Source: Candidatus Borrarchaeum weybense (GTDB lineage Archaea; Asgardarchaeota; Sifarchaeia; Borrarchaeales; Borrarchaeaceae). Taken from it: a stretch of DNA of 64,000 nt. A program made the translations under genes and the position numbers. The number at the start of each line of letters is the position of its first letter. The stretch's first letter is position 1. The stretch is taken from the NCBI GenBank assembly GCA_019057385.1, contig JAHQJS010000004.1, positions 948,727 through 1,012,726 on the forward strand, given 5' to 3'. Below the pieces are notes generated by a model. That model had not been told where the DNA came from. It ran no database searches and saw only the letters and a list, made by a program, of their open reading frames with translations. Shown here one piece after another: positions 3,478 to 59,555 of this stretch.

Positions 3478-3540
3478 CCATCACTAATTAAAAAAAAACG
3501 ACACAAATCATGAAAAATATAATATACACGTATTTTCATG
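3478..3540 (+). repeat. Imperfect ~62-bp direct repeat, copy 2
   Basis: Matches 1552-1613; CATGAAAA...TTTTCATG hairpin; overlaps stop codon of the HEPN gene. Confidence 0.85.
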
Positions 3541-4198
3541 CCTTCTCAAATATCTCTTTGGCTAATTTTAAAGTATCAACGGCCTGTTTCTTGTCAGGAA
3601 TGTTTCCTGAATGAACTATATCATTTCTTAAGTCTCTAATATTCTTTATTTCAGTTTCTTTATATACGGGTATTCCCTTTTTCTCAAGCCTTTTTATTTT
3701 ATCAGGAATACCCTCATCTAGCGGAGGACCCTTTATTCCCAGAGTTTTCATTTTTTCAGTAAGTATTATTTCGTTTGAGGTGTCAGCAAGGATTACCATT
3801 ACCATCCTCTCGAATTCATTGTCTGGGTTTAAATTTTCCGCAAACTCAAGGATACATCCAGCCCGTTGCAGCGTTATAGGTCGAGCGTCTATTAATTTTT
3901 TTACACATTCCTGAGCTAGGCGCACTACTTCAGTGGCAATACCCTTGAAATCTTCTAAGGATATGCTCGGAGTACCACTTATGTAAATAGTGTCAGTTGT
4001 GTGTATGCGCACATGCATGTCTTTTTTGTCTTCAAGATTAAGTCTACCATGATAAATAACATATTTACCTTTATCCTCAACTCGATGAGAGTTGAATTTT
4101 CTTTCTAAAGCATATTTAAGCCGATCTATGGCCTCTTTTGAAGAAATTCCAGAAACCGTTGCTTGCCTTTTATGGCTCTTATGCGTGCTCATCTTCAC
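3536..4198 (-). CDS. HEPN-domain protein (putative RNase) with N-terminal TBP-like/RNase HIII-N-like domain
   Basis: C-terminal RNDIVH (R-x4-H) HEPN motif; N-terminal VRIHTTDTIYISG resembles the TBP-like fold (weak). Confidence 0.65.
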   Translation of the reverse strand: MKMSTHKSHKRQATVSGISSKEAIDRLKYALERKFNSHRVEDKGKYVIYHGRLNLEDKKDMHVRIHTTDTIYISGTPSISLEDFKGIATEVVRLAQECVKKLIDARPITLQRAGCILEFAENLNPDNEFERMVMVILADTSNEIILTEKMKTLGIKGPPLDEGIPDKIKRLEKKGIPVYKETEIKNIRDLRNDIVHSGNIPDKKQAVDTLKLAKEIFEKA

Positions 4199-50951: not shown

Positions 50952-51257
50952 TTTGATTTCACCTCAATGAGTATATATCTAAAAAGTGATATCCTAAAGT
51001 GTATACCTAAAAGCTATTTAAGACTTAGCTTTTTTGCTGATAGACACTTACGTCACAGATCAGACAGGTCTTTACCTCACACAAATAGGGGTGCACGTCA
51101 TAAGTCTGAATCCTGCGAAATTGATGACTGGGTTTTGTTCAATATCGATTTTCTCACGTTTAAGCTCGATGCCTTGCGTGATAAGATGCAAGGAATGCTG
51201 TACTAAATTTGTGGAGTTTAAAAATCAACTGTAATATAAGATAAATAGAAGGCGATC

Positions 51258-52784
51258 ATGATGATTCAGACCATCAAACTCCGAATGTATCCTGATGAGG
51301 CACAAGAATATCAACTCCATGAAATCTTTACCATCTATAACCGGGTGAAACGCATTGGTTACAACCTGCTGTTTCATAACGAGGACTACATGGTAGAGCG
51401 CTTCGATGAGGGTAAAACCATCCAACAGTGTTTGATGAGTCTGTGCCACAATAACCCTTATGTCAATACTATCTTGATTGACAACAAGGCGCAACTGGAA
51501 TCACAAAAGACGTGGCTGGAAAAACGACGCACACGCATGACACAGCAGCTACAAGTCATCATCAAGAAAATCAAAACAATAAAAGAGAAAGATACACATG
51601 ACAGACGGTTGAAGGGCTTATACGCCCGTAGATCCTCAATAATGGCTAAACTGCGCAATTTACACCTCGAACCTGTGGTATTTGGCACTAAGAAATTATT
51701 CAGAGACAGAATACGCGGCAACATAAGTAGGGAAGAGTTCAGGATACGACGGGATTCTTCTTTCAGTTGCATTGGAAAGCAACAGGGAAAAAACCTGAAC
51801 ATTAAAGTATTGCCCAGAAAAACCGTCAAGATACGCACCTTTTCCAAGCAAAAAGGATGCAAATGGCTGATCATTTCCCTTTCCGTAAACTCTGTGCAGG
51901 AAAAATGGTTTCAAGATATTTTTAATTCCGACAAATACACGGTGACCGTGAAACGGAAGTTTTTCAAGGGGACGGTGCGTTATTTTGTCCATGTTTCTTA
52001 TGAAATTCCAGAACCTGTACCACGTTGTGGCTACGAACATGGTGCCATCGGATTAGATTTCAACTATAATTTTGTTGCCCTGACCAATGTCGATCAACAT
52101 GGTACATTACTCTCTTATCATACCATTTCGTTTTGCAACCTCCACAGCTATCGAACAAATAAACGTAGCGATTACATCTCTTATAAGATGGATAAAGTCG
52201 TCAATTATTGCATCAATAAGGGCAAGGGCATCGTGGTCGAGGACTTACAATTCGGCCAAGAGTTTTACTATAATAAAAAACGCAACCGAAAATTCAGCAA
52301 TATGAAGACCACTGCCTTGCAGCTGTTAGAGAGAAAATGCAAAAAGCGAGGTGTGTCCTTTCGAAAGGTATTTCCTGGATATACCTCCATAATCGGGAGG
52401 TATAAGTATTCAGGATTACATAATTTGTCAACACATCACTTAGCAAGTTATGTAATAGCTCGAAGGGGTTTAGGTTTCAGGGAAGTCATTCCAGCCATCT
52501 ACGATTGGGTGTCCTCACAAGTCGGGGAGTTCATAGAACCCCGTTTGAAACAGGATAGTCCTTACCGTAGATGGTCGATGATCCATGACCTCTTCAAGCA
52601 CAGTGGGATAACTTCCTTCAAGGCTGCCGAAATACTTAAAAAAACAGTATTAATGAGGCATGTTTTGCACTCGGTGACGAGCGCACAGCCCGATAACCTT
52701 AAGGCTGGTTCTTCCTTCTTGAAAGCAGGGAGAATTGATGATTATTATAAAGTGTGGAATTTTATAACTAATCCCACATTATAA
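51258..52784 (+). CDS. TnpB-related protein with non-canonical RuvC-III and no zinc finger
   Basis: QTIKLRMYP, GLDFN (RuvC-I), VVEDL (RuvC-II), V.PGYTS.IG..KY, HHLASYVIARRG in place of the RuvC-III Asp motif. Confidence 0.8.
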   Translation: MMIQTIKLRMYPDEAQEYQLHEIFTIYNRVKRIGYNLLFHNEDYMVERFDEGKTIQQCLMSLCHNNPYVNTILIDNKAQLESQKTWLEKRRTRMTQQLQVIIKKIKTIKEKDTHDRRLKGLYARRSSIMAKLRNLHLEPVVFGTKKLFRDRIRGNISREEFRIRRDSSFSCIGKQQGKNLNIKVLPRKTVKIRTFSKQKGCKWLIISLSVNSVQEKWFQDIFNSDKYTVTVKRKFFKGTVRYFVHVSYEIPEPVPRCGYEHGAIGLDFNYNFVALTNVDQHGTLLSYHTISFCNLHSYRTNKRSDYISYKMDKVVNYCINKGKGIVVEDLQFGQEFYYNKKRNRKFSNMKTTALQLLERKCKKRGVSFRKVFPGYTSIIGRYKYSGLHNLSTHHLASYVIARRGLGFREVIPAIYDWVSSQVGEFIEPRLKQDSPYRRWSMIHDLFKHSGITSFKAAEILKKTVLMRHVLHSVTSAQPDNLKAGSSFLKAGRIDDYYKVWNFITNPTL

Positions 52785-52918
52785 ATAATTGTAAGGTTTA
52801 AGAATATCCACATAATTTTTCTTGATTCCCAGTCCGTTTCGTAAGTTCAAAATTTGTCTTCCTCTTATAAGCTCTAAATTTAGAAAGTCAAATTAAGGAT
52901 TCAAAGGAGTTCCTAATT

Positions 52919-53326
52919 GTGAATAAACAAACTGATTTACAAAATAATAAGGAACTTTATGGCGTTTTCAATGAATTAAGGAACTATTTAGCCGGTATGG
53001 CTGCTGGTATGACTCGTGATGAAAGTTTAATACAAGAATTGATACCTCTTCTCTTTTGTAAAATTTATACTGAAAAAAATATAGATTTGAAAGATAAGTT
53101 TCGAGCAGAATCAAAAGAATCAGCCGGTGTTATAAAAAGGCGGATTTCAGCAATTTTCAAAATGGTTAAGAAAGAATTTGAGGATATTTTTGAAGAAGAG
53201 GAAAAAATTGATCTAAAGGCGGAATCAGTTAAGTTCATTGTCAGCAAGCTGCAAAATCATGATCTAACGACGGTGGATCAAGATGCAATCGGAAATCTGT
53301 TTGAATCCTTCCTTGGTCGATCGTAG
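52919..53326 (+). pseudogene. N-terminal fragment of an N6-adenine MTase (HsdM-like) paralog
   Basis: GMTRDESLIQELIPLLFCKIY...DAIGNLFESFLG aligns to 56093..58666; stops about five codons before GQFFTP. Confidence 0.85.
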
Positions 53327-53595
53327 CCAAAGATACCAATTTGCTCGTAGCTAAAACAACTAATACTGATACTAAAATGTTACTCAAGCAGATTTGATTG
53401 TTTTGTATAATTAGTAGATGGTATCTAGTGTACAACTGATTTTCTCATTATTTACAAACAACTAAAATCTCAAATAACGTCTATAAACCACGAAAATTTA
53501 CTATCATACTTTTACTGTGGTCTCTCTCTAGTAAAATATATTATATTTCATAATTTTTCTAGAGAGCATGTATGTATTCTATCGAGGTTGTAAAC

Positions 53596-54408
53596 ATGAA
53601 ACAAACAAAAAAACAGATCGTGGTTCGTGCCTATACTCCAATAGCTAAACCTCATAATGTGTCTATTCAAAAAAATTCCACTATGCTTCTTCTAGGTGAA
53701 ATTTCTTATGAAAGTGGTTCGAAAGCATTCAATACAAAACTGTATTACATTAAAGGGGTACGCGGAATGTTGAGGCATGCCGCCATGTCTCTTGCTCAAG
53801 ATTGTGGTATAGAAGTCTGCCATTCCAGTGAAAAAACTGAGCTCAAAGATGGGACTCAACTCGTTCCTTCTGGTTTCCATCCTCTTGGCTCATGTGATCC
53901 TCCTTGTATTCTCCGAAGAATCTTTGGCACCTTCCGCGAAGAATCCTCAATCTCCGTCTTAGTTGATCCTATTGCTTCGATAAAGCATAAAGAATACACT
54001 ACTGAGTTACCTGCTCAAAAAGTCCATATCGCCACTGAAAATAGGATAGCCCTTACTTATGATAGAACGGCTATTCAAGATTTTCGTGAAAGCTATTTCA
54101 GCGGGTATTTTAACTTCGTAATCGACATCACAAATTTAACCGATGATGAGATCAAGTTCATCGTGGAATCGTTGCTCTACATCGAAACACTTGGCAGTGG
54201 CAAAAATGCTGGTTATGGATATATCAAGATTCTAGAGGTCGAAATCCAGAATGTACATGTTTTGCGAAACATCACGATGGATAACGGAGTATATAAGATC
54301 ATTGAAGAAATCGAAGTAAAACCGATACTACTTGAAAACATCGAAGAATGGAGAAACGCGTATATGAGAGAAAATCTGATAAAAATTGAACAACAACACT
54401 CCACTTGA
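53596..54408 (+). CDS. Cas7/Csm3-like RAMP protein
   Basis: First strand RAYTP, KGVRGMLRH helix, C...C..PC..RRIFG, ENRI thumb, G-rich loop LGSGKNAGYG; GAGGT RBS. Confidence 0.85.
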   Translation: MKQTKKQIVVRAYTPIAKPHNVSIQKNSTMLLLGEISYESGSKAFNTKLYYIKGVRGMLRHAAMSLAQDCGIEVCHSSEKTELKDGTQLVPSGFHPLGSCDPPCILRRIFGTFREESSISVLVDPIASIKHKEYTTELPAQKVHIATENRIALTYDRTAIQDFRESYFSGYFNFVIDITNLTDDEIKFIVESLLYIETLGSGKNAGYGYIKILEVEIQNVHVLRNITMDNGVYKIIEEIEVKPILLENIEEWRNAYMRENLIKIEQQHST

Positions 54409-54665
54409 TTAGTTGTGAAAGGGCGTGAGAAATAATGGAGATTTTCTCTTCTAAGACGCTCATCGCCCGCTTTTTCTCAGCTAAGACGGAATACTTCTTG
54501 TAATCTGCAAGAAGCACGTTCTTATGTGAGAGACAGTTATTATAGAGGTCCCAAACCTCGGTTGATGGGGAAAGAATGTCCGGCAGAGGGATGAATAAAA
54601 CGATAACTACTTTACCAAAAGGGTTACAAAAGCCGTTACTTTCCCATGGTCTTATATCTCCCGTT
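54409..54665 (+). ncRNA. Putative structured guide-like RNA, copy A (scaffold 54409-54610 plus variable 3' segment)
   Basis: Multi-hairpin intergenic region with motif string shared with 55537-55698. Confidence 0.7.
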
Positions 54666-54708
54666 TAAATGACAAAAAATTTAAAACATCCTATAGTGGT
54701 GCTGAAAA

Positions 54709-55512
54709 ATGCCAAAAAGATGGTTTAAATTATCTGGTGTAACTAAAACTCCAGTGATCACGAAAAAAAGACATTTTTTTCATAAATTTGGGGTAATTAC
54801 CATTAATGGTAGTCCTAGAGTGTTCGGTAAACTTACGAAAGGTGAGAGACGCGCTCCTATGACCTTTAGGGCATGGCATGGAACAGTAGAGTTTATTATT
54901 CCTCACTCAAAACTCGAACCAGCGCTCGCTATTGAAAGTATCGGGAGATATACCCATGAAGGGATGGGGCAAATACTGTGGACAAGTGTAAAACAACTCC
55001 CCAAAAGACCTCTCTATACTCCAAAAAAAATTAGGATTCGTAAAATGCTCCCAAAACTTTCAGATACATGGGAAAAACTAATGATCGCCATGTTACTACA
55101 TGATTTCGTGAATACTGAAAAACATTCCAGCAAAATTTACTCTGAGGTTACTATCGTTGATGACGACGTATATAATCTAGCGAAAAATCATCATAATTAC
55201 GAGATGGATGAAAGGGAATTGCCCCTCCTCGCTACCCTCCAACATTATGACCAAGTTTCTTCCTCAATTTCTCGAAAGTTTAGGTGGTCTACCTCCTCAC
55301 GTTATCGTGCAGATATTCAAGAGAAAATAGATTTTGATACACTAAAAAGAGAGATAGAATTGAGAAAACATTCTCTTTATGCTCTTTATAGCTTCATCTA
55401 TAAGTCTCAAGTACTTAATGAGATCAATGAGGCAATAGAATTTGGTTTCTCTTCTTTAAAAAACCATCTTCTTCTGATGGTCAATCTCTTTCTTGATGAC
55501 CTTTATGGATGA
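54709..55512 (+). CDS. Compact Cas5-like RAMP fused to HD nuclease domain
   Basis: VTKTPVI first strand, IGRYTHEGMG G-rich loop, then LLHDF...HH...YDQ..S HD pattern. Confidence 0.75.
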   Translation: MPKRWFKLSGVTKTPVITKKRHFFHKFGVITINGSPRVFGKLTKGERRAPMTFRAWHGTVEFIIPHSKLEPALAIESIGRYTHEGMGQILWTSVKQLPKRPLYTPKKIRIRKMLPKLSDTWEKLMIAMLLHDFVNTEKHSSKIYSEVTIVDDDVYNLAKNHHNYEMDERELPLLATLQHYDQVSSSISRKFRWSTSSRYRADIQEKIDFDTLKREIELRKHSLYALYSFIYKSQVLNEINEAIEFGFSSLKNHLLLMVNLFLDDLYG

Positions 55513-55536
55513 GTTTTTATGTCACAAGTTATGGTG

Positions 55537-55780
55537 TTGCAATCCCTCTTTACAGATAAATATACAGGATGCAAGACGGACTGTTCATCGCATATCGCGA
55601 TGAACACGTTCTTGTACATGAGACTGAACCCGAGAGGTCCCACGCCTCAGATGACGGGAATGGATGACAGGCCAAAGGACGAGAAAAGTGATAAATACGG
55701 ACACTTTTTCACGCCAAGAAACGTTGTCAGATTCGCTATTACCATTAATGATCCTAGGAATGGTAATGGCATCCTCCCTA
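55537..55780 (+). ncRNA. Putative structured guide-like RNA, copy B (scaffold to 55698 plus hsdM-like 3' segment)
   Basis: Same motif string as copy A with compensatory hairpins; followed by T-tract. Confidence 0.7.
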
Positions 55781-55794
55781 TTTTTTTATTTTTT
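55781..55794 (+). terminator. Archaeal poly-T terminator candidate
   Basis: TTTTTTTATTTTTT right after RNA copy B. Confidence 0.5.
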
Positions 55795-55803
55795 CAATAA
55801 TAG

Positions 55804-55960
55804 TTTTACATGAACCTCTCTTTTAAAAAAATGCCATTCATCCACATTATCATAGAAACTTCTAGCGAGATTACTAAGACTTGCCCAGAGCATCTATCTA
55901 TAACACACGAAAGATCAAACTTACTATAACAAAATAAACGTCAGAGGGGTTCTGGTAAAA
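55804..55960. repeat. 157-bp segment with 17-bp imperfect terminal inverted repeats (MITE-like)
   Basis: TTTTACATGAACCTCTC ... GAGGGGTTCTGGTAAAA (14/17 complementary); no clear TSD. Confidence 0.4.
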
Positions 55961-56002
55961 TGCTTCATAATTTTGAATAGTTTTGTCGGTTCCCCATACA
56001 AT

Positions 56003-56023
56003 TTTATAGATGTTGTTTGCAAA
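56003..56023. repeat. 21-bp dyad motif copy
   Basis: TTTATAGA-TGTTG-TTTGCAAA. Confidence 0.45.
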
Positions 56024-56092
56024 AAAGAACATCAAATTAGATTTCCTAGTTTTTTAACTTAAGTCAATGATTGCTCAGGTTGGTTAAGAATT

Positions 56093-58666
56093 ATGCCGAC
56101 ACGAACGAAATCAGTTGAAAAGGTTTCCTTTGCTGAGGAACGCGTCAAAGGACAGATGAGACTTATTGATTTTATTTCTGGAAGTTTAGTTGAAGCCACA
56201 CCTGAAGAGGTAGAGGCTGTTCAGGTCTTTTCTCGCAGATTGGTCGAAGAGTTTGGATATGATAAAAATCAAATCCAAACAAGACCTCAATTTAAAATCC
56301 GGGGCGCACCGTCAGGTAAACCAAAATATCCTGTTGACATAGCCGTCTTTAATGACGAAAAAAAAACCCATGGCAACTTGTTTATGATTGTCGAATGCAA
56401 ACGAAAGACTCGTCGAGATGGAGAAAAGCAACTGAAAATATATTTGGGACTATCAAGTGCTCAGATAGGAGTTTGGTTCAATGGTAGTGAGCACCTCTAC
56501 CTACAGAAGATTCTCGACAAAGAGGGAAATGTAACCTACAATTTAATTCCCACGATTCCCAAAAAAGGACAAAGAATTGAAGATATTGGCAAATACAAGC
56601 GAAAAAACCTGACGAAACCGAGTAATATAATCTCTTTGTTCAAAGATATTAAGAATCACTTATACGGAAACGTCGTAGGAATTACTCGTGATGAAGCTTT
56701 AATACAAGAAATAATGAATCTACTATTCTGCAAAATATACGATGAACTGAATACTGCTCCGGAAGATGATGTTGCTTTCAGAGTAGGAATCAATGAAGAC
56801 TCGAATCAGGTCAAGGAGAGAATCTCTGAGCTATTCAAGTTTGTGAAAATAGCATACGAGGATATCTTCGAAGAGCGAGACGAATTACGTCTTGATCCTG
56901 ACTCACTTTGTTATGTTGTTGGCGAATTGCAACCTTATAGTCTGTCAGAAGTAGATAGTAACGCAATAGGCGATGCGTTCGAGGTATTCATTGGAAAGGC
57001 GCTCAAGGGTGCCGAGGGGCAGTTTTTTACACCTCGAAATGTGGTTCGAATGGCTGTTGAGATACTTGACCCACAACCCTACGAACATATCGTTGATCCT
57101 GCATGCGGTAGCGGAGGTTTCTTAATATTTGCAATGGAACATGTGTGGCAAAAACTTAAGATTGAAGCTAAAAGAAAGAATTGGTCAACCGAAATGCTAC
57201 AGAAAAGAAAGACAGAAATTGCGAGCAAATTTTTTGGTGGAATTGACAAGGACATGTTCCTAGCAAAAGTCACAAAGGCTTACATGGCACTAATAGGTGA
57301 CGGTAGAGGCGGAATATTCTGTGAAAACTCTTTAGAATTCCCAGAAAAATGGCAGGCGACTACCCAACAAAGAATAATGCTTGGTAAATTTGATGTTCTA
57401 TTTACTAATCCTCCCTTCGGATCAAAGATCACTATCAAGAAATCATTGTATTCTCAGTTCGAGTTAAGCTTTAAATGGAATAAAAACAAAAAAACTGGTA
57501 AGTGGAAGAAGGGTAATAAACAGGCAGACAAAAGACCACCGCAAGTTCTGTTTATTGAGCGATGTTTACAATTTCTTGCTCCAAACGGAAGAATGGCAAT
57601 CGTTTTACCTGATGGTTTATTAAGCAATCCCAGCGATGGTTATATTACACAGTATATCAAGGATAATGCTGAGATCATTGGACTCGTCGATTTACCAATG
57701 AGTACTTTCTTACCTAATACACCCACGAAGACACATATTTTGTTCTTAAGAAAGAAAAAACCTGAGGGGAACTATCCAATCTTTATGGCCTACGCGAAAA
57801 CTTGTGGACATGATAAGAGAGGGAAGATCATCTATAAAGTCGGTGAAGCTGGTCAAAATGTTGTTGATGATGACATTTATGAAATATCAAAGCATTTTGC
57901 TCGCAGATATGAAAGAGTTAATAAATATGATAGGAAGGGATTTCTTGTTTATCTTGACGATTTAAAGTCAGGTATACTGTTACCGAAATATTATAATCCA
58001 GAATTGAATGAGAGATTAGAAGCGTATCGACAGACTGGTGAATATGACGTTTATTCTATAGGTGATTTAGTTAAACTGGGAAAGTTGTGGATAAGGAGAG
58101 GCCATGAAGTCGGATCTGTGAATTATGGAACTGGCGATATCCCGTTTATTCGGACTTCGGAAATATCAAATTGGGAACTAACTGCCGATCCTACTCATTG
58201 TTTAGCCGAGGATATATACGAGGAATACAAGGATCGCCAGAAACTAAAAAAAGATGATATCTTAATTATAAATGATGGTACGTACCTAATGGGTCGAACC
58301 GCGATACTTTCTGAAAATGATACAAAAATTGTTGTTCAAAGTCACATCAGAATTCTTACAGTCTTAGACCGAGAATTTATTCACCCTTATCTTTTGTTGT
58401 TCCTCTTAGGATTGAGAATTGTTCAAGAACAGATTGAGTCGAAATCCTTTAGACAAGCTACTATCTCTACTCTAGGAAACAGACTTCTTGAAATCAGAAT
58501 CCCACTACCAAAAGATGAAAAAGTAAGAAAAGAAATTGTTGAGCAAGTTTCTAACATAGTTGAGAAGCGCTCGATGCTAAGACATAAGGCGATGAATATT
58601 GAATTCAATGGAACATCAGAGAGTGTTATGGGTATAAAAAACAAGGCAACCTTGGGAAATCTATAG
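56093..58666 (+). CDS. Single-chain restriction-modification enzyme (HsdR-N-like nuclease + N6-MTase + specificity domain; type IIG/IIB-like)
   Basis: PEE...Q, PVDIAV...IVECK nuclease; GQFFTP, DPACGSGG, NPPF; C-terminal TRD (IPFIRTSEI, DDILI, I.IPLP). Confidence 0.92.
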   Translation: MPTRTKSVEKVSFAEERVKGQMRLIDFISGSLVEATPEEVEAVQVFSRRLVEEFGYDKNQIQTRPQFKIRGAPSGKPKYPVDIAVFNDEKKTHGNLFMIVECKRKTRRDGEKQLKIYLGLSSAQIGVWFNGSEHLYLQKILDKEGNVTYNLIPTIPKKGQRIEDIGKYKRKNLTKPSNIISLFKDIKNHLYGNVVGITRDEALIQEIMNLLFCKIYDELNTAPEDDVAFRVGINEDSNQVKERISELFKFVKIAYEDIFEERDELRLDPDSLCYVVGELQPYSLSEVDSNAIGDAFEVFIGKALKGAEGQFFTPRNVVRMAVEILDPQPYEHIVDPACGSGGFLIFAMEHVWQKLKIEAKRKNWSTEMLQKRKTEIASKFFGGIDKDMFLAKVTKAYMALIGDGRGGIFCENSLEFPEKWQATTQQRIMLGKFDVLFTNPPFGSKITIKKSLYSQFELSFKWNKNKKTGKWKKGNKQADKRPPQVLFIERCLQFLAPNGRMAIVLPDGLLSNPSDGYITQYIKDNAEIIGLVDLPMSTFLPNTPTKTHILFLRKKKPEGNYPIFMAYAKTCGHDKRGKIIYKVGEAGQNVVDDDIYEISKHFARRYERVNKYDRKGFLVYLDDLKSGILLPKYYNPELNERLEAYRQTGEYDVYSIGDLVKLGKLWIRRGHEVGSVNYGTGDIPFIRTSEISNWELTADPTHCLAEDIYEEYKDRQKLKKDDILIINDGTYLMGRTAILSENDTKIVVQSHIRILTVLDREFIHPYLLLFLLGLRIVQEQIESKSFRQATISTLGNRLLEIRIPLPKDEKVRKEIVEQVSNIVEKRSMLRHKAMNIEFNGTSESVMGIKNKATLGNL

Positions 58667-58718
58667 TACCTTAGTTGATTTTTGGTCTCTTATATATCTA
58701 AGAATATAAGTTAAAGGC

Positions 58719-59555
58719 TATAAAATCGATAAGAATGGAGATAAACAACTCGATGATGATCTTTTGCAAATAGGTAAGCGATATCATGATCTACGTCAAA
58801 ATTTTAATGAAAAATATGACCATCTAGGTTTTTTCATTGACGTACAGAATTTAAAAAAAGGAATTCTCATGCCAAAATATTACAACCCAGAAATCAAGAA
58901 TGAATTAAGGAGGCTTAAAGAAACAGGCCATTATGATTTGGTAAGTATTGGAGAGTTGGAGGGACAAAACACACTCCAGATAAGTTGTGGTCACGAGATA
59001 GGTTCTATAAATTATGGCACAGGAGATATTCCTTTCATTCGCACCTCTGAAATAAGTAACTGGGAGATTGCAGCAGATCCGACTCATTGTGTTTCAGAAG
59101 ATATCTATGAGATGTACAGAACAAAGCAGGATCTACAGAAAGACGATATTCTTATTGTAAATGATGGGACCTACTTAGTTGGTCGAACTGCAATTCTATC
59201 AGAATTTGATGTGAAAATTGTTATTCAAAGTCATTTTAGAAAAATTCGTGTTCTTGATTGGAGTGACTTGACGCCGTATCTTTTGCTTTATCTGTTAGGT
59301 TTGAGAATAGTTCAGAATCAAATAGAAGCGAAAACATTTCGCCAGGCTACTATCTCGACTCTTGGAAATAGACTGCGAGAAATCATTCTGCCTATTCCAA
59401 AGAATTCCAAACTTAAAGCAGAAATTTCTGAAAGTGTAGAACTCATCGTTGGGAAACGTGCAAAATTACGGAATCAGGCTATGCACATGCAATTTGATGA
59501 TAAAAAAGAGAATGTGATGGGACTGCAAAATAAAGCAGCCCGTGGTAATATCTAG
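58719..59555 (+). pseudogene. C-terminal (specificity-domain) fragment of a paralogous R-M gene; may be expressed from TTG 58764
   Basis: Highly similar to the C-terminal third of 56093..58666; homology extends upstream (YKIDKNGDKQLDDD) with no start codon. Confidence 0.75.

Follow-up and report, generated by a model that had tools for sequence, protein, structure and literature searches.

Class 1 CRISPR-Cas effectors (types I, III, IV and VII) have a backbone of Cas7-fold subunits, and Cas7 filaments flip out every sixth guide base, which stays unpaired with the target. To our knowledge, all known Cas7-based RNA-guided systems are supplied with guides by CRISPR arrays, VIPR, which was reported recently, relies on repeat-coded RNAs instead, and flank-derived guides are known only for the single-protein TnpB/IscB nucleases (OMEGA systems). 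Here we analyzed a stretch of 64,000 nucleotides (nt) from the Asgard archaeon Candidatus Borrarchaeum weybense (GenBank assembly GCA_019057385.1, contig JAHQJS010000004.1, positions 948,727 to 1,012,726), referred to as the window. At 53323 to 55698 on its + strand lies an inserted module composed of an upstream region, a gene for a Cas7-like RAMP protein, a structured scaffold (copy A) with its tail, a gene for a RAMP-HD protein, a second scaffold (copy B) and a 5-nt linker. A previous sequence-only reading had noticed C at every sixth base in the two segments behind these scaffolds and had matched this spacing to the Cas7 register. Our analysis makes it quite probable that the locus is a mobile, multi-copy, array-less Asgard Cas7 and RAMP-HD module, in which the 36 to 42 nt after each scaffold act as a guide in a 5+1 register and the terminal guide is flanking host DNA.

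The module resembles class 1 systems in its Cas7-fold backbone protein, in guide blocks of five pairing bases and one non-pairing base (deduced here from sequence only), in a second small RAMP (Cas5-like) subunit, and in an HD nuclease domain such as those fused to Cas3 or Cas10. Unlike these systems, it has no CRISPR array, repeat-derived handle, large or small subunit, or adaptation genes. As a handle it has a structured scaffold of ~135 nt, located 5' of the putative guide, and this guide corresponds to an insertion flank or a fixed promoter match and not to an acquired spacer. Its flipped guide base also shows a base preference; we know of no such preference reported for Cascade or Csm/Cmr. 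With OMEGA systems (TnpB/IscB), the module shares the layout of a mobile element with a scaffold at its end, adjoining host DNA as the likely guide matching the unoccupied site, and multiple copies per genome. It differs from them in that the candidate effectors are a Cas7-type RAMP and a RAMP-HD protein instead of a RuvC nuclease, that the scaffolds accompany RAMP genes, that the module contains no transposase gene, and that a second, internal scaffold carries a fixed guide.

Two further systems are close. The cr-like RNAs (CreA and mini-arrays in class 1, tracr-L in type II) are locus-encoded guides against the effector promoter, for which sixth-position mismatches are tolerated and self-repression is predicted (bioRxiv 10.1101/2023.03.03.530964). 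Similarly, in eight relatives' loci the internal (A-type) guide of our module matches the effector promoter with mismatches at sixth positions. In contrast to cr-like RNAs, this match is long (~40/48), array-less, and found in relatives' loci but not in the window's copy. VIPR is an array-less two-gene locus of a RAMP and an accessory protein, flanked by its own guide RNAs (vrRNAs), with non-pairing positions imposed by a thumb; the skip bases frequently coincide with wobble positions in target codons, and the vrRNAs, which follow a 2-in-5 code, are built from YNNGG (GGY/NN) tandem repeats and carry a conserved, structured tail at the 3' side (bioRxiv 10.64898/2026.04.26.720920). The module is likewise a two-gene, array-less RAMP locus with candidate guide RNAs of its own and non-pairing positions often on codon wobble bases, but its scaffold is located 5', its guide is contiguous, its register is 5+1, and G is depleted instead of being fixed. 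Position by position, the 61 tails analyzed below showed no VIPR-type fixed GG at period 5. Vipr is a minimal RAMP branching outside Cas5/6/7; the best structural and profile matches of the module RAMP are Cas7 proteins, and it also matches the Pfam family RAMPs. Full-text literature searches found no published description of an array-less Cas7 and HD module, and the 2025 CRISPR classification paper makes no mention of Asgard systems of this kind.

Two putative guides and the 5+1 register

A ~135-nt scaffold is located 3' of each module gene. Copy A (internal; 54468 to 54604, + strand) was detected by nhmmer with E values of 3e-23 to 3.5e-41 and has a structure common to 30 other copies. Copy B (terminal; 55552 to 55693, + strand) matched the covariance model with an E value of 1.4e-27, and its 3' end, AAAAGTGATA, resembles a Shine-Dalgarno (SD) sequence. 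In the alignment, 95.4% of cells were paired (42-56% in slid controls), and 12 pairs showed compensatory changes compared to 5.4 +/- 1.5 in shuffles, with 0 of 500 shuffles reaching 12. The RNA is assigned to the + strand because many of its U-G pairs would be C-A on the opposite strand. Rfam contained no matching family anywhere in the window. An open reading frame (ORF) spanning scaffold B (55519-55800) was rejected as a gene, since the scaffold copies differ by 1-nt insertions or deletions and their base pairs co-vary.

The genome containing the module (4.18 Mb on 8 contigs, labelled G000) harbors 26 scaffolds, 20 of them within 2 kb of a RAMP gene and 6 standing alone; a module carries one to three long scaffolds. 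Scans of genome contigs and metagenomes gave only 13 and 26 loci, respectively; loci of relatives are designated by L numbers. Two or three scaffolds stand in succession at L038:3251-3543, L063:1213-1505, G000 C5:118036-119851 and G000 C4:903455-904087, with a spacing of at least ~25 nt or of 136-366 nt, which resembles a rudimentary array of long repeats.

Positions behind the scaffold are counted from e, the base directly after the conserved scaffold end ...GACGAnAAAnGT (54602 in copy A and 55690 in copy B). Sixth positions are those at e+8+6k, resulting in blocks of five bases plus one.

Segment B originates from the host. Upstream of the module, positions 52919 to 53322 (+ strand) contain the left remnant of an N6-adenine methyltransferase gene, which ends with ...FESFLGRS at the junction 53322|53323. 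In two genomes of the same genus that served as empty-site references (G050 and G031), the remnant has an orthologue with 84-87% DNA identity, and homology ends at 53322; the remnant is also 42% identical to residues 169-303 of an intact neighbouring methyltransferase. The translation of segment B, GHFFTPRNVVRFAITINDP, continues the methyltransferase remnant, and both references encode the uninterrupted protein ...FESFLGRS-LKGSK-GQFFTPRNVVRLAIDITDP... Since the orthologous gene is intact in both genomes and the module is absent from this site, 53323-55698 is an insertion and segment B is the host flank. At this junction, 16 nt of the target were lost. Host DNA resumes at 55699, which is e+9, and the preceding base, 55698, is the sixth base of the linker block.

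We name guide B the 42 nt of host DNA that directly adjoin the module on its right (55699 to 55740, + strand), with sixth positions at 55704, 55710 and so on to 55740. It is followed at 55741 to 55797 by the rest of the remnant, whose homology to the orthologue fades after ~55780, and by a T-run (55783-55797) that could end the transcript. Altogether ~80 nt of the interrupted gene survive on this side and the remainder is gone. Directly after this stub, at 56093-59555, an intact MAD2-like N6-adenine methyltransferase (857 aa) and a specificity subunit are encoded.

Compared with the empty site, guide B reads (window/empty) GGACA[C/G] TTTTT[C/T] AC[G/A]CCA AGAAA[C/T] GTTGT[C/G] AGATT[C/A] GCTATT. 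Within its first 36 nt, guide B departs from both empty sites at five of six sixth positions, always with C in the window, compared to one of the 30 other positions. G050 and G031 agree with each other at 5/6 sixth positions and neither has a C where the window differs, so the changes most simply occurred on the window's lineage. Two of the C changes alter an amino acid (Q to H and L to F). The first is the conversion of GQFF to GHFF proposed by the sequence-only reading; it is real, since the orthologues keep GQFF. The same methyltransferase insertion is present in L040, a metagenome contig with a 96% identical module; there the Cs of guide B are kept and the sixth base of the linker is T, not C.

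When the scaffold flanks of relatives were compared by BLAST to G000, 17 further pairs of occupied and empty sites were found (18 in all), and in nearly all of the 17 the host homology begins at e+9. In coding flanks, e+9 is mostly codon position 1, so that the sixth bases fall on wobble positions. Both junctions were resolved in four comparisons. The window, L054 and L030 lost 9-16 nt just upstream of the guide, and L051 has a 37-bp target duplication, which is about guide length (L051:947-983 and 3516-3552 vs. G000 C6:891196-891232). The left copy is mutated at 11 positions, most of them pairing ones, as though to evade the element's own guide, and the right copy, which is the guide, is nearly unchanged.

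The internal tail is of a different kind. Segment A (54605 to 54652, + strand), which the sequence-only reading had called variable, belongs to a conserved tail: internal tails are homologous between different loci. It overlaps a TATA-like box of the next gene and is a decayed copy of the family's putative promoter-directed guide. In eight loci from three sequence clades, the A-type tail resembled the promoter of its locus's own RAMP gene: 33-39 of 40 non-sixth positions matched, and only 1-5 of 8 sixth positions did. The match spans -66 to -19 of the RAMP start codon, including the TATA box, and is exemplified by the tail ATCCAA TTTACG AAGAAA AGGTAA AAAAAC CGATAC GTTTAG ATATCC and the promoter ATCCAT TTTACT AAAAAA AGGTAG AAAAAG CGATAG GTTTAT ATATCT. 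The pairing positions differ between clades, yet tail and promoter agree within each locus. An intact match also exists within G000, at C4:524127-524265 with the promoter near C4:525144. As they are non-coding, these tail-promoter pairs are the cleanest evidence for 5+1 pairing. Together with the empty-site comparison they support the earlier proposal that sixth positions need not match the target. The match of A-type guides to their own promoter suggests self-repression.

In the window, tail A has a 1-nt deletion relative to its relatives, between TTTAC and GTTAC, and the ancestral sixth-position Cs are therefore now at block position 5. This is the source of the 1-nt phase offset between the two segments that had been noticed before. 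A search of G000 with tail A under all six 6-nt masks gave no site above 27/40, and in the window's own locus no promoter match was present (best 22/40). L040 has lost scaffold A and the greater part of its tail through a deletion (2290-2500) flanked by two short TAC-TTT repeats, and the closest G000 paralogue of the module (C6:562542) has no scaffold A. The masked target search suggested earlier was also negative for terminal and solo guides: with sixth bases masked, no trans target was found in G000 beyond self, viral collections not being searched. The exceptions were paralogous coding homologies, namely segment B against the intact neighbouring methyltransferase (25/35 non-sixth and 0/7 sixth positions) and a similar case at C4:338790.

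Instead of providing a guide, the scaffold could be a cis-acting leader, with a RAMP filament binding the scaffold, coating the first ~40 nt of the downstream mRNA in a 6-nt register and controlling its translation or stability without pairing to a target in trans; the sixth-base rule would then result from protein-RNA contact alone. The scaffold does end in the SD-like GGTGAT, the flanks are mostly coding with codons in step with the register, and among 62 tails 11 start a gene (ATG or GTG) at e+6 or e+9, mostly exactly at e+9. However, ~50 of the 62 tails start no gene, and segment B of the window belongs to the ~80-nt pseudogene stub described above, which is kept beside the scaffold although the remainder of the gene is lost. 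The junctions at e+9 mark the tails as insertion flanks and not as evolved leaders, and co-variation between A-tail and promoter at the five pairing positions over three clades is left unexplained. A purely cis-acting role is therefore improbable in our view; the leader and guide roles are not mutually exclusive and may coexist. The gene-starting tails are found in L038, L046, L059, L061, L071, L076, L079, L080, L081, L085, G000 C4:904087 and C4:1262865. Gene starts at e+9 lie 5 nt after the SD-like GGTGAT(A), and the genes encode ribosomal protein S19e-like, acyl-CoA dehydrogenase-like, phosphoglucosamine-mutase-like, GIY-YIG and other proteins.

Base composition at the sixth positions

The C combs in the two segments were confirmed base by base. 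In copy A, C occupies 54615, 54627, 54633, 54639, 54645 and 54651, and 54621 is G. In copy B, it occupies 55698, 55704, 55710, 55722, 55728 and 55734, and 55716 is A (6/7 each). The C content of the window is 19%. In G000, at least six Cs among seven period-6 positions occur at 0.12% of start positions, and ~1.7% of 60-nt stretches contain such a run. Taken by themselves, the two runs are suggestive (~3e-4 jointly, post hoc) and not decisive. The Cs of copy B are at e+8, e+14 and so on to e+44, exactly in the family-wide register. Those of copy A are at e+13, e+19 and so on, one base out, so that the proposed match to the Cas7 register held for B and not for A.

A broader test is provided by 61 non-redundant tails from six genomes and metagenomes, with internal (A-type) tails and the window's segment B excluded. 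Between e+3 and e+44 (sixth positions e+8 to e+44), G made up 5.4% of sixth positions vs. ~19% of the others (p 8e-14), and C made up 25.5% vs. ~16% (p 3.5e-6). The G counts at e+8 to e+38 were 3, 2, 5, 2, 1 and 3 of 61, and the overall makeup of the sixth positions was 26% C, 34% T, 34% A and 5-7% G. The phase three bases away was normal, which argues for a period of 6 and against a period of 3 or a codon effect. With distance, the signal fades out by about 60-70 nt: sixth-position G was 13.9% from e+45 to e+68 (p 0.011) and 18.1% from e+69 to e+104 (p 0.88). The result stands in the 16 tails from G000 and in the 45 tails from other genomes taken separately. Thus, the 6-nt C periodicity proposed for further copies is present, and it appears mainly as a depletion of G.

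The comparisons of empty and occupied sites reveal the direction of change. From empty site to guide, C was gained 14 times and lost twice at sixth positions, and G was gained once and lost nine times. At the other wobble-phase position, the corresponding numbers were 3/4 for C and 8/5 for G. G occupied 16% of sixth positions in empty sites and 8% in guides. Since the empty sites are not G-poor, the bias arises in the guide after insertion. Sixth positions had been proposed to be selected for C. The moderate C excess is in line with this, but the general rule concerns the exclusion of G and not C itself; on these sequences it would be put more sharply as 'not G, often C'.

The Cs could also be a by-product of coding sequence and chance, segment B being a gene remnant and segment A a promoter region, with no RNA-protein register involved. 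All Cs of copy B are indeed at third codon positions of the methyltransferase remnant (TAC, CAC, TTC, CCA, AAC, GTC, TTC), period-6 C runs are not exceedingly rare in G000, as given above, and coding flanks differ from the empty site at both wobble phases. Nevertheless, the seven intervening third codon positions in B contain no C. Against this explanation stand the 61 tails, in which one phase of six is G-depleted and C-rich, the three-base-shifted phase is normal and the effect ends beyond ~60 nt. Moreover, the wobble bases at sixth positions of guide B are changed in 5/6 cases vs. 1/6 for the remaining wobble bases, each of the five changes yielding C although the genome is AT-rich and two of them altering the amino acid, and period-6 mismatches are also seen in the non-coding promoter pairs. 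We regard this explanation as very unlikely. The register can be told apart from wobble by base composition, by the direction of change and by the non-coding A pairs, but not by mismatch counts in coding flanks alone.

A weaker second period-6 signal was detected at block position 1 (e+9, e+15 and so on) of the 61 tails, where G is frequent (21-25%, up to 30% in the first sample) and C is rare (11%).

The module and its proteins

The first gene (53572 to 54408, + strand) encodes a 278-aa RAMP protein whose fold is that of a Cas7 (Csm3-like) backbone subunit. It matched the Pfam family RAMPs with an E value of 5e-7, and a profile built from 28 RAMP homologues matched Cas7-11, type VII Cas7 and Csm3 in the PDB. 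The AlphaFold model (predicted local distance difference test score, pLDDT, of 87) had its best Foldseek matches among the Cas7 subunits of types VII, IV-A, III-A and I-D, with E values down to 2e-8. Its identity as a Cas7-fold protein is thus supported by both the profile and the predicted structure.

The second gene (54709 to 55512, + strand) encodes a protein of 267 aa with an N-terminal small RAMP (RRM) domain containing a G-rich loop and a C-terminal HD-type domain. Residues H131, D132, H139, H161, H162, D181 and H253 are invariant in 20 homologues and form an HD-type set. Residues 1-105 aligned to Cas5/Csf3, Cas6, Csm4 and Cmr RAMPs with modest Z scores of 5-6.5. Sequence searches with this protein found no match in Pfam, NCBIfam or the PDB.

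A predicted complex of two RAMP copies and the HD protein scored 0.56 (best control, 0.00) and passed the mark applied. Of 80 solved complexes, 58 attained this mark, as did 2 of 110 mismatched pairs; at scores of 0.60 or less, those that did comprised only 7 of the 80 along with both mismatches. The runs shared at least 68% of contacts, and the pLDDT of the partner was at least 56. This prediction lends weak support to a complex of the RAMP and RAMP-HD proteins, and the pass may stem from likeness to solved Cas7-Cas5 complexes.

The module at 53323-55698 contains these two genes only, and neither a large subunit (Cas8/Cas10) nor adaptation genes are present in it. Gene pairs of this type occur ~10 times in G000, with 65-79% amino-acid identity. 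The only array-like repeats found in G000 with a crude finder (exact 18-mers) are at 145-149 kb of contig C4, far from every module. When contigs from four DNA runs were compared to 52400-56600, none joined across the module; the runs gave one low-depth joint between both scaffolds, which is most likely a repeat artefact. Among public runs, none with RNA was listed, which is uninformative as to expression. Other nearby ORFs of the window include a TnpB-like gene, glycolytic genes and restriction-modification genes.

That the scaffolds are omega-RNAs of this TnpB-like gene (51258-52784), with the RAMP genes as passengers, is hardly credible: a TnpB-family protein is encoded 1.7 kb upstream and the use of a flank as guide is TnpB logic, but 15 of 16 TnpB copies in G000 lack a scaffold within 11 kb or on the same contig, 20 of the 26 scaffolds are close to a RAMP gene instead, the TnpB element (51024-52796) was inserted separately and is lacking from G050 and G031, and a 6-nt register is not a TnpB property. 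This insertion sequence, with its ORF of 508 aa and 16 genome copies, is located between the GAPDH and methyltransferase genes, and G050 and G031 join 51023 directly to 52797.

Proposed mechanism and distribution

If the module works as an RNA-guided system, the scaffold RNAs would be transcribed and loaded, and the 36-42 nt 3' of each scaffold would serve as guide. A Cas7 filament would hold this guide in blocks of five pairing bases and one flipped-out base, with the count starting at the end of the scaffold. Guide B, at the terminus, would not be acquired; as host DNA at the right end of the insertion, it would match the uninterrupted allele, following the logic of TnpB omega-RNAs. It would aim at this allele as DNA, and the HD domain may cut the empty allele for homing or retention. 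The internal guide would aim at the module's own Cas7 promoter, permitting self-repression. Being unpaired, the sixth bases would be free to change, and they would drift from G toward C, presumably due to a protein pocket that holds the flipped base. The Cs of copy B would then be such register marks, and those of copy A the same marks from an older guide, one base off in a decaying copy.

Several observations weigh against this mechanism. Leaving out the window, the direction of change at sixth positions is based on small counts (C 9/2 and G 1/7, p ~0.07 each). In coding flanks, mismatches at block position 6 (28%) hardly exceed those at position 3 (21%, p 0.34) and alone are no proof of 5+1. 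The no-G rule has exceptions, since A-type guides carry G at a few of their sixth positions, and the window's own copy A has no target left in G000 and is out of register. A near-complete match of an A-guide to its own promoter beside an HD nuclease raises a problem of self-cleavage. The junctions are mixed, with three losses of 9-16 nt and one 37-bp duplication, and no motif resembling a protospacer-adjacent motif was visible beside the empty-site targets. Finally, the HD domain is without a structural match: Foldseek gave nothing at E <= 0.001 for the 267-aa protein, the HD half of which was barely probed by the structure searches.

The module may be a class-1-type counterpart of OMEGA: a selfish, array-less element that uses landing-site DNA as guide against the uninterrupted allele, restrains itself with a guide against its own promoter, and reads the flipped base as not G and preferably C. 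In this capacity it could be a living model of pre-array Cas7 effectors. We put this wider interpretation forward tentatively, with somewhat less than even confidence. If true, a mobile Cas7 and HD module with a flank-derived guide would join class 1 and OMEGA and offer a testable model of a pre-array class 1 stage. The sixth-base rule would be a new testable prediction on how the Cas7 filament holds its guide, and a 6-nt G-free comb behind a scaffold could be a practical signature for finding guides and their register from primary sequence data. As a compact system of two genes encoding ~270 aa each, the module is of interest as a potential programmable DNA binder.

Homologues of the module occur in Borrarchaeum, Promethearchaeota, Hodarchaeales and Heimdallarchaeota. 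Of 151 genomes sampled across the phylum, 6 contained the scaffold according to the covariance model, and all of these belong to two families. At six loci (L032-L037), nhmmer detected no scaffold, and no search for a different RNA was made there. These loci, from the Heimdall group and one Bathyarchaeia metagenome-assembled genome, contain gene pairs with homologues of the 267-aa protein that are 33-38% identical and RAMPs that are 35-43% identical.

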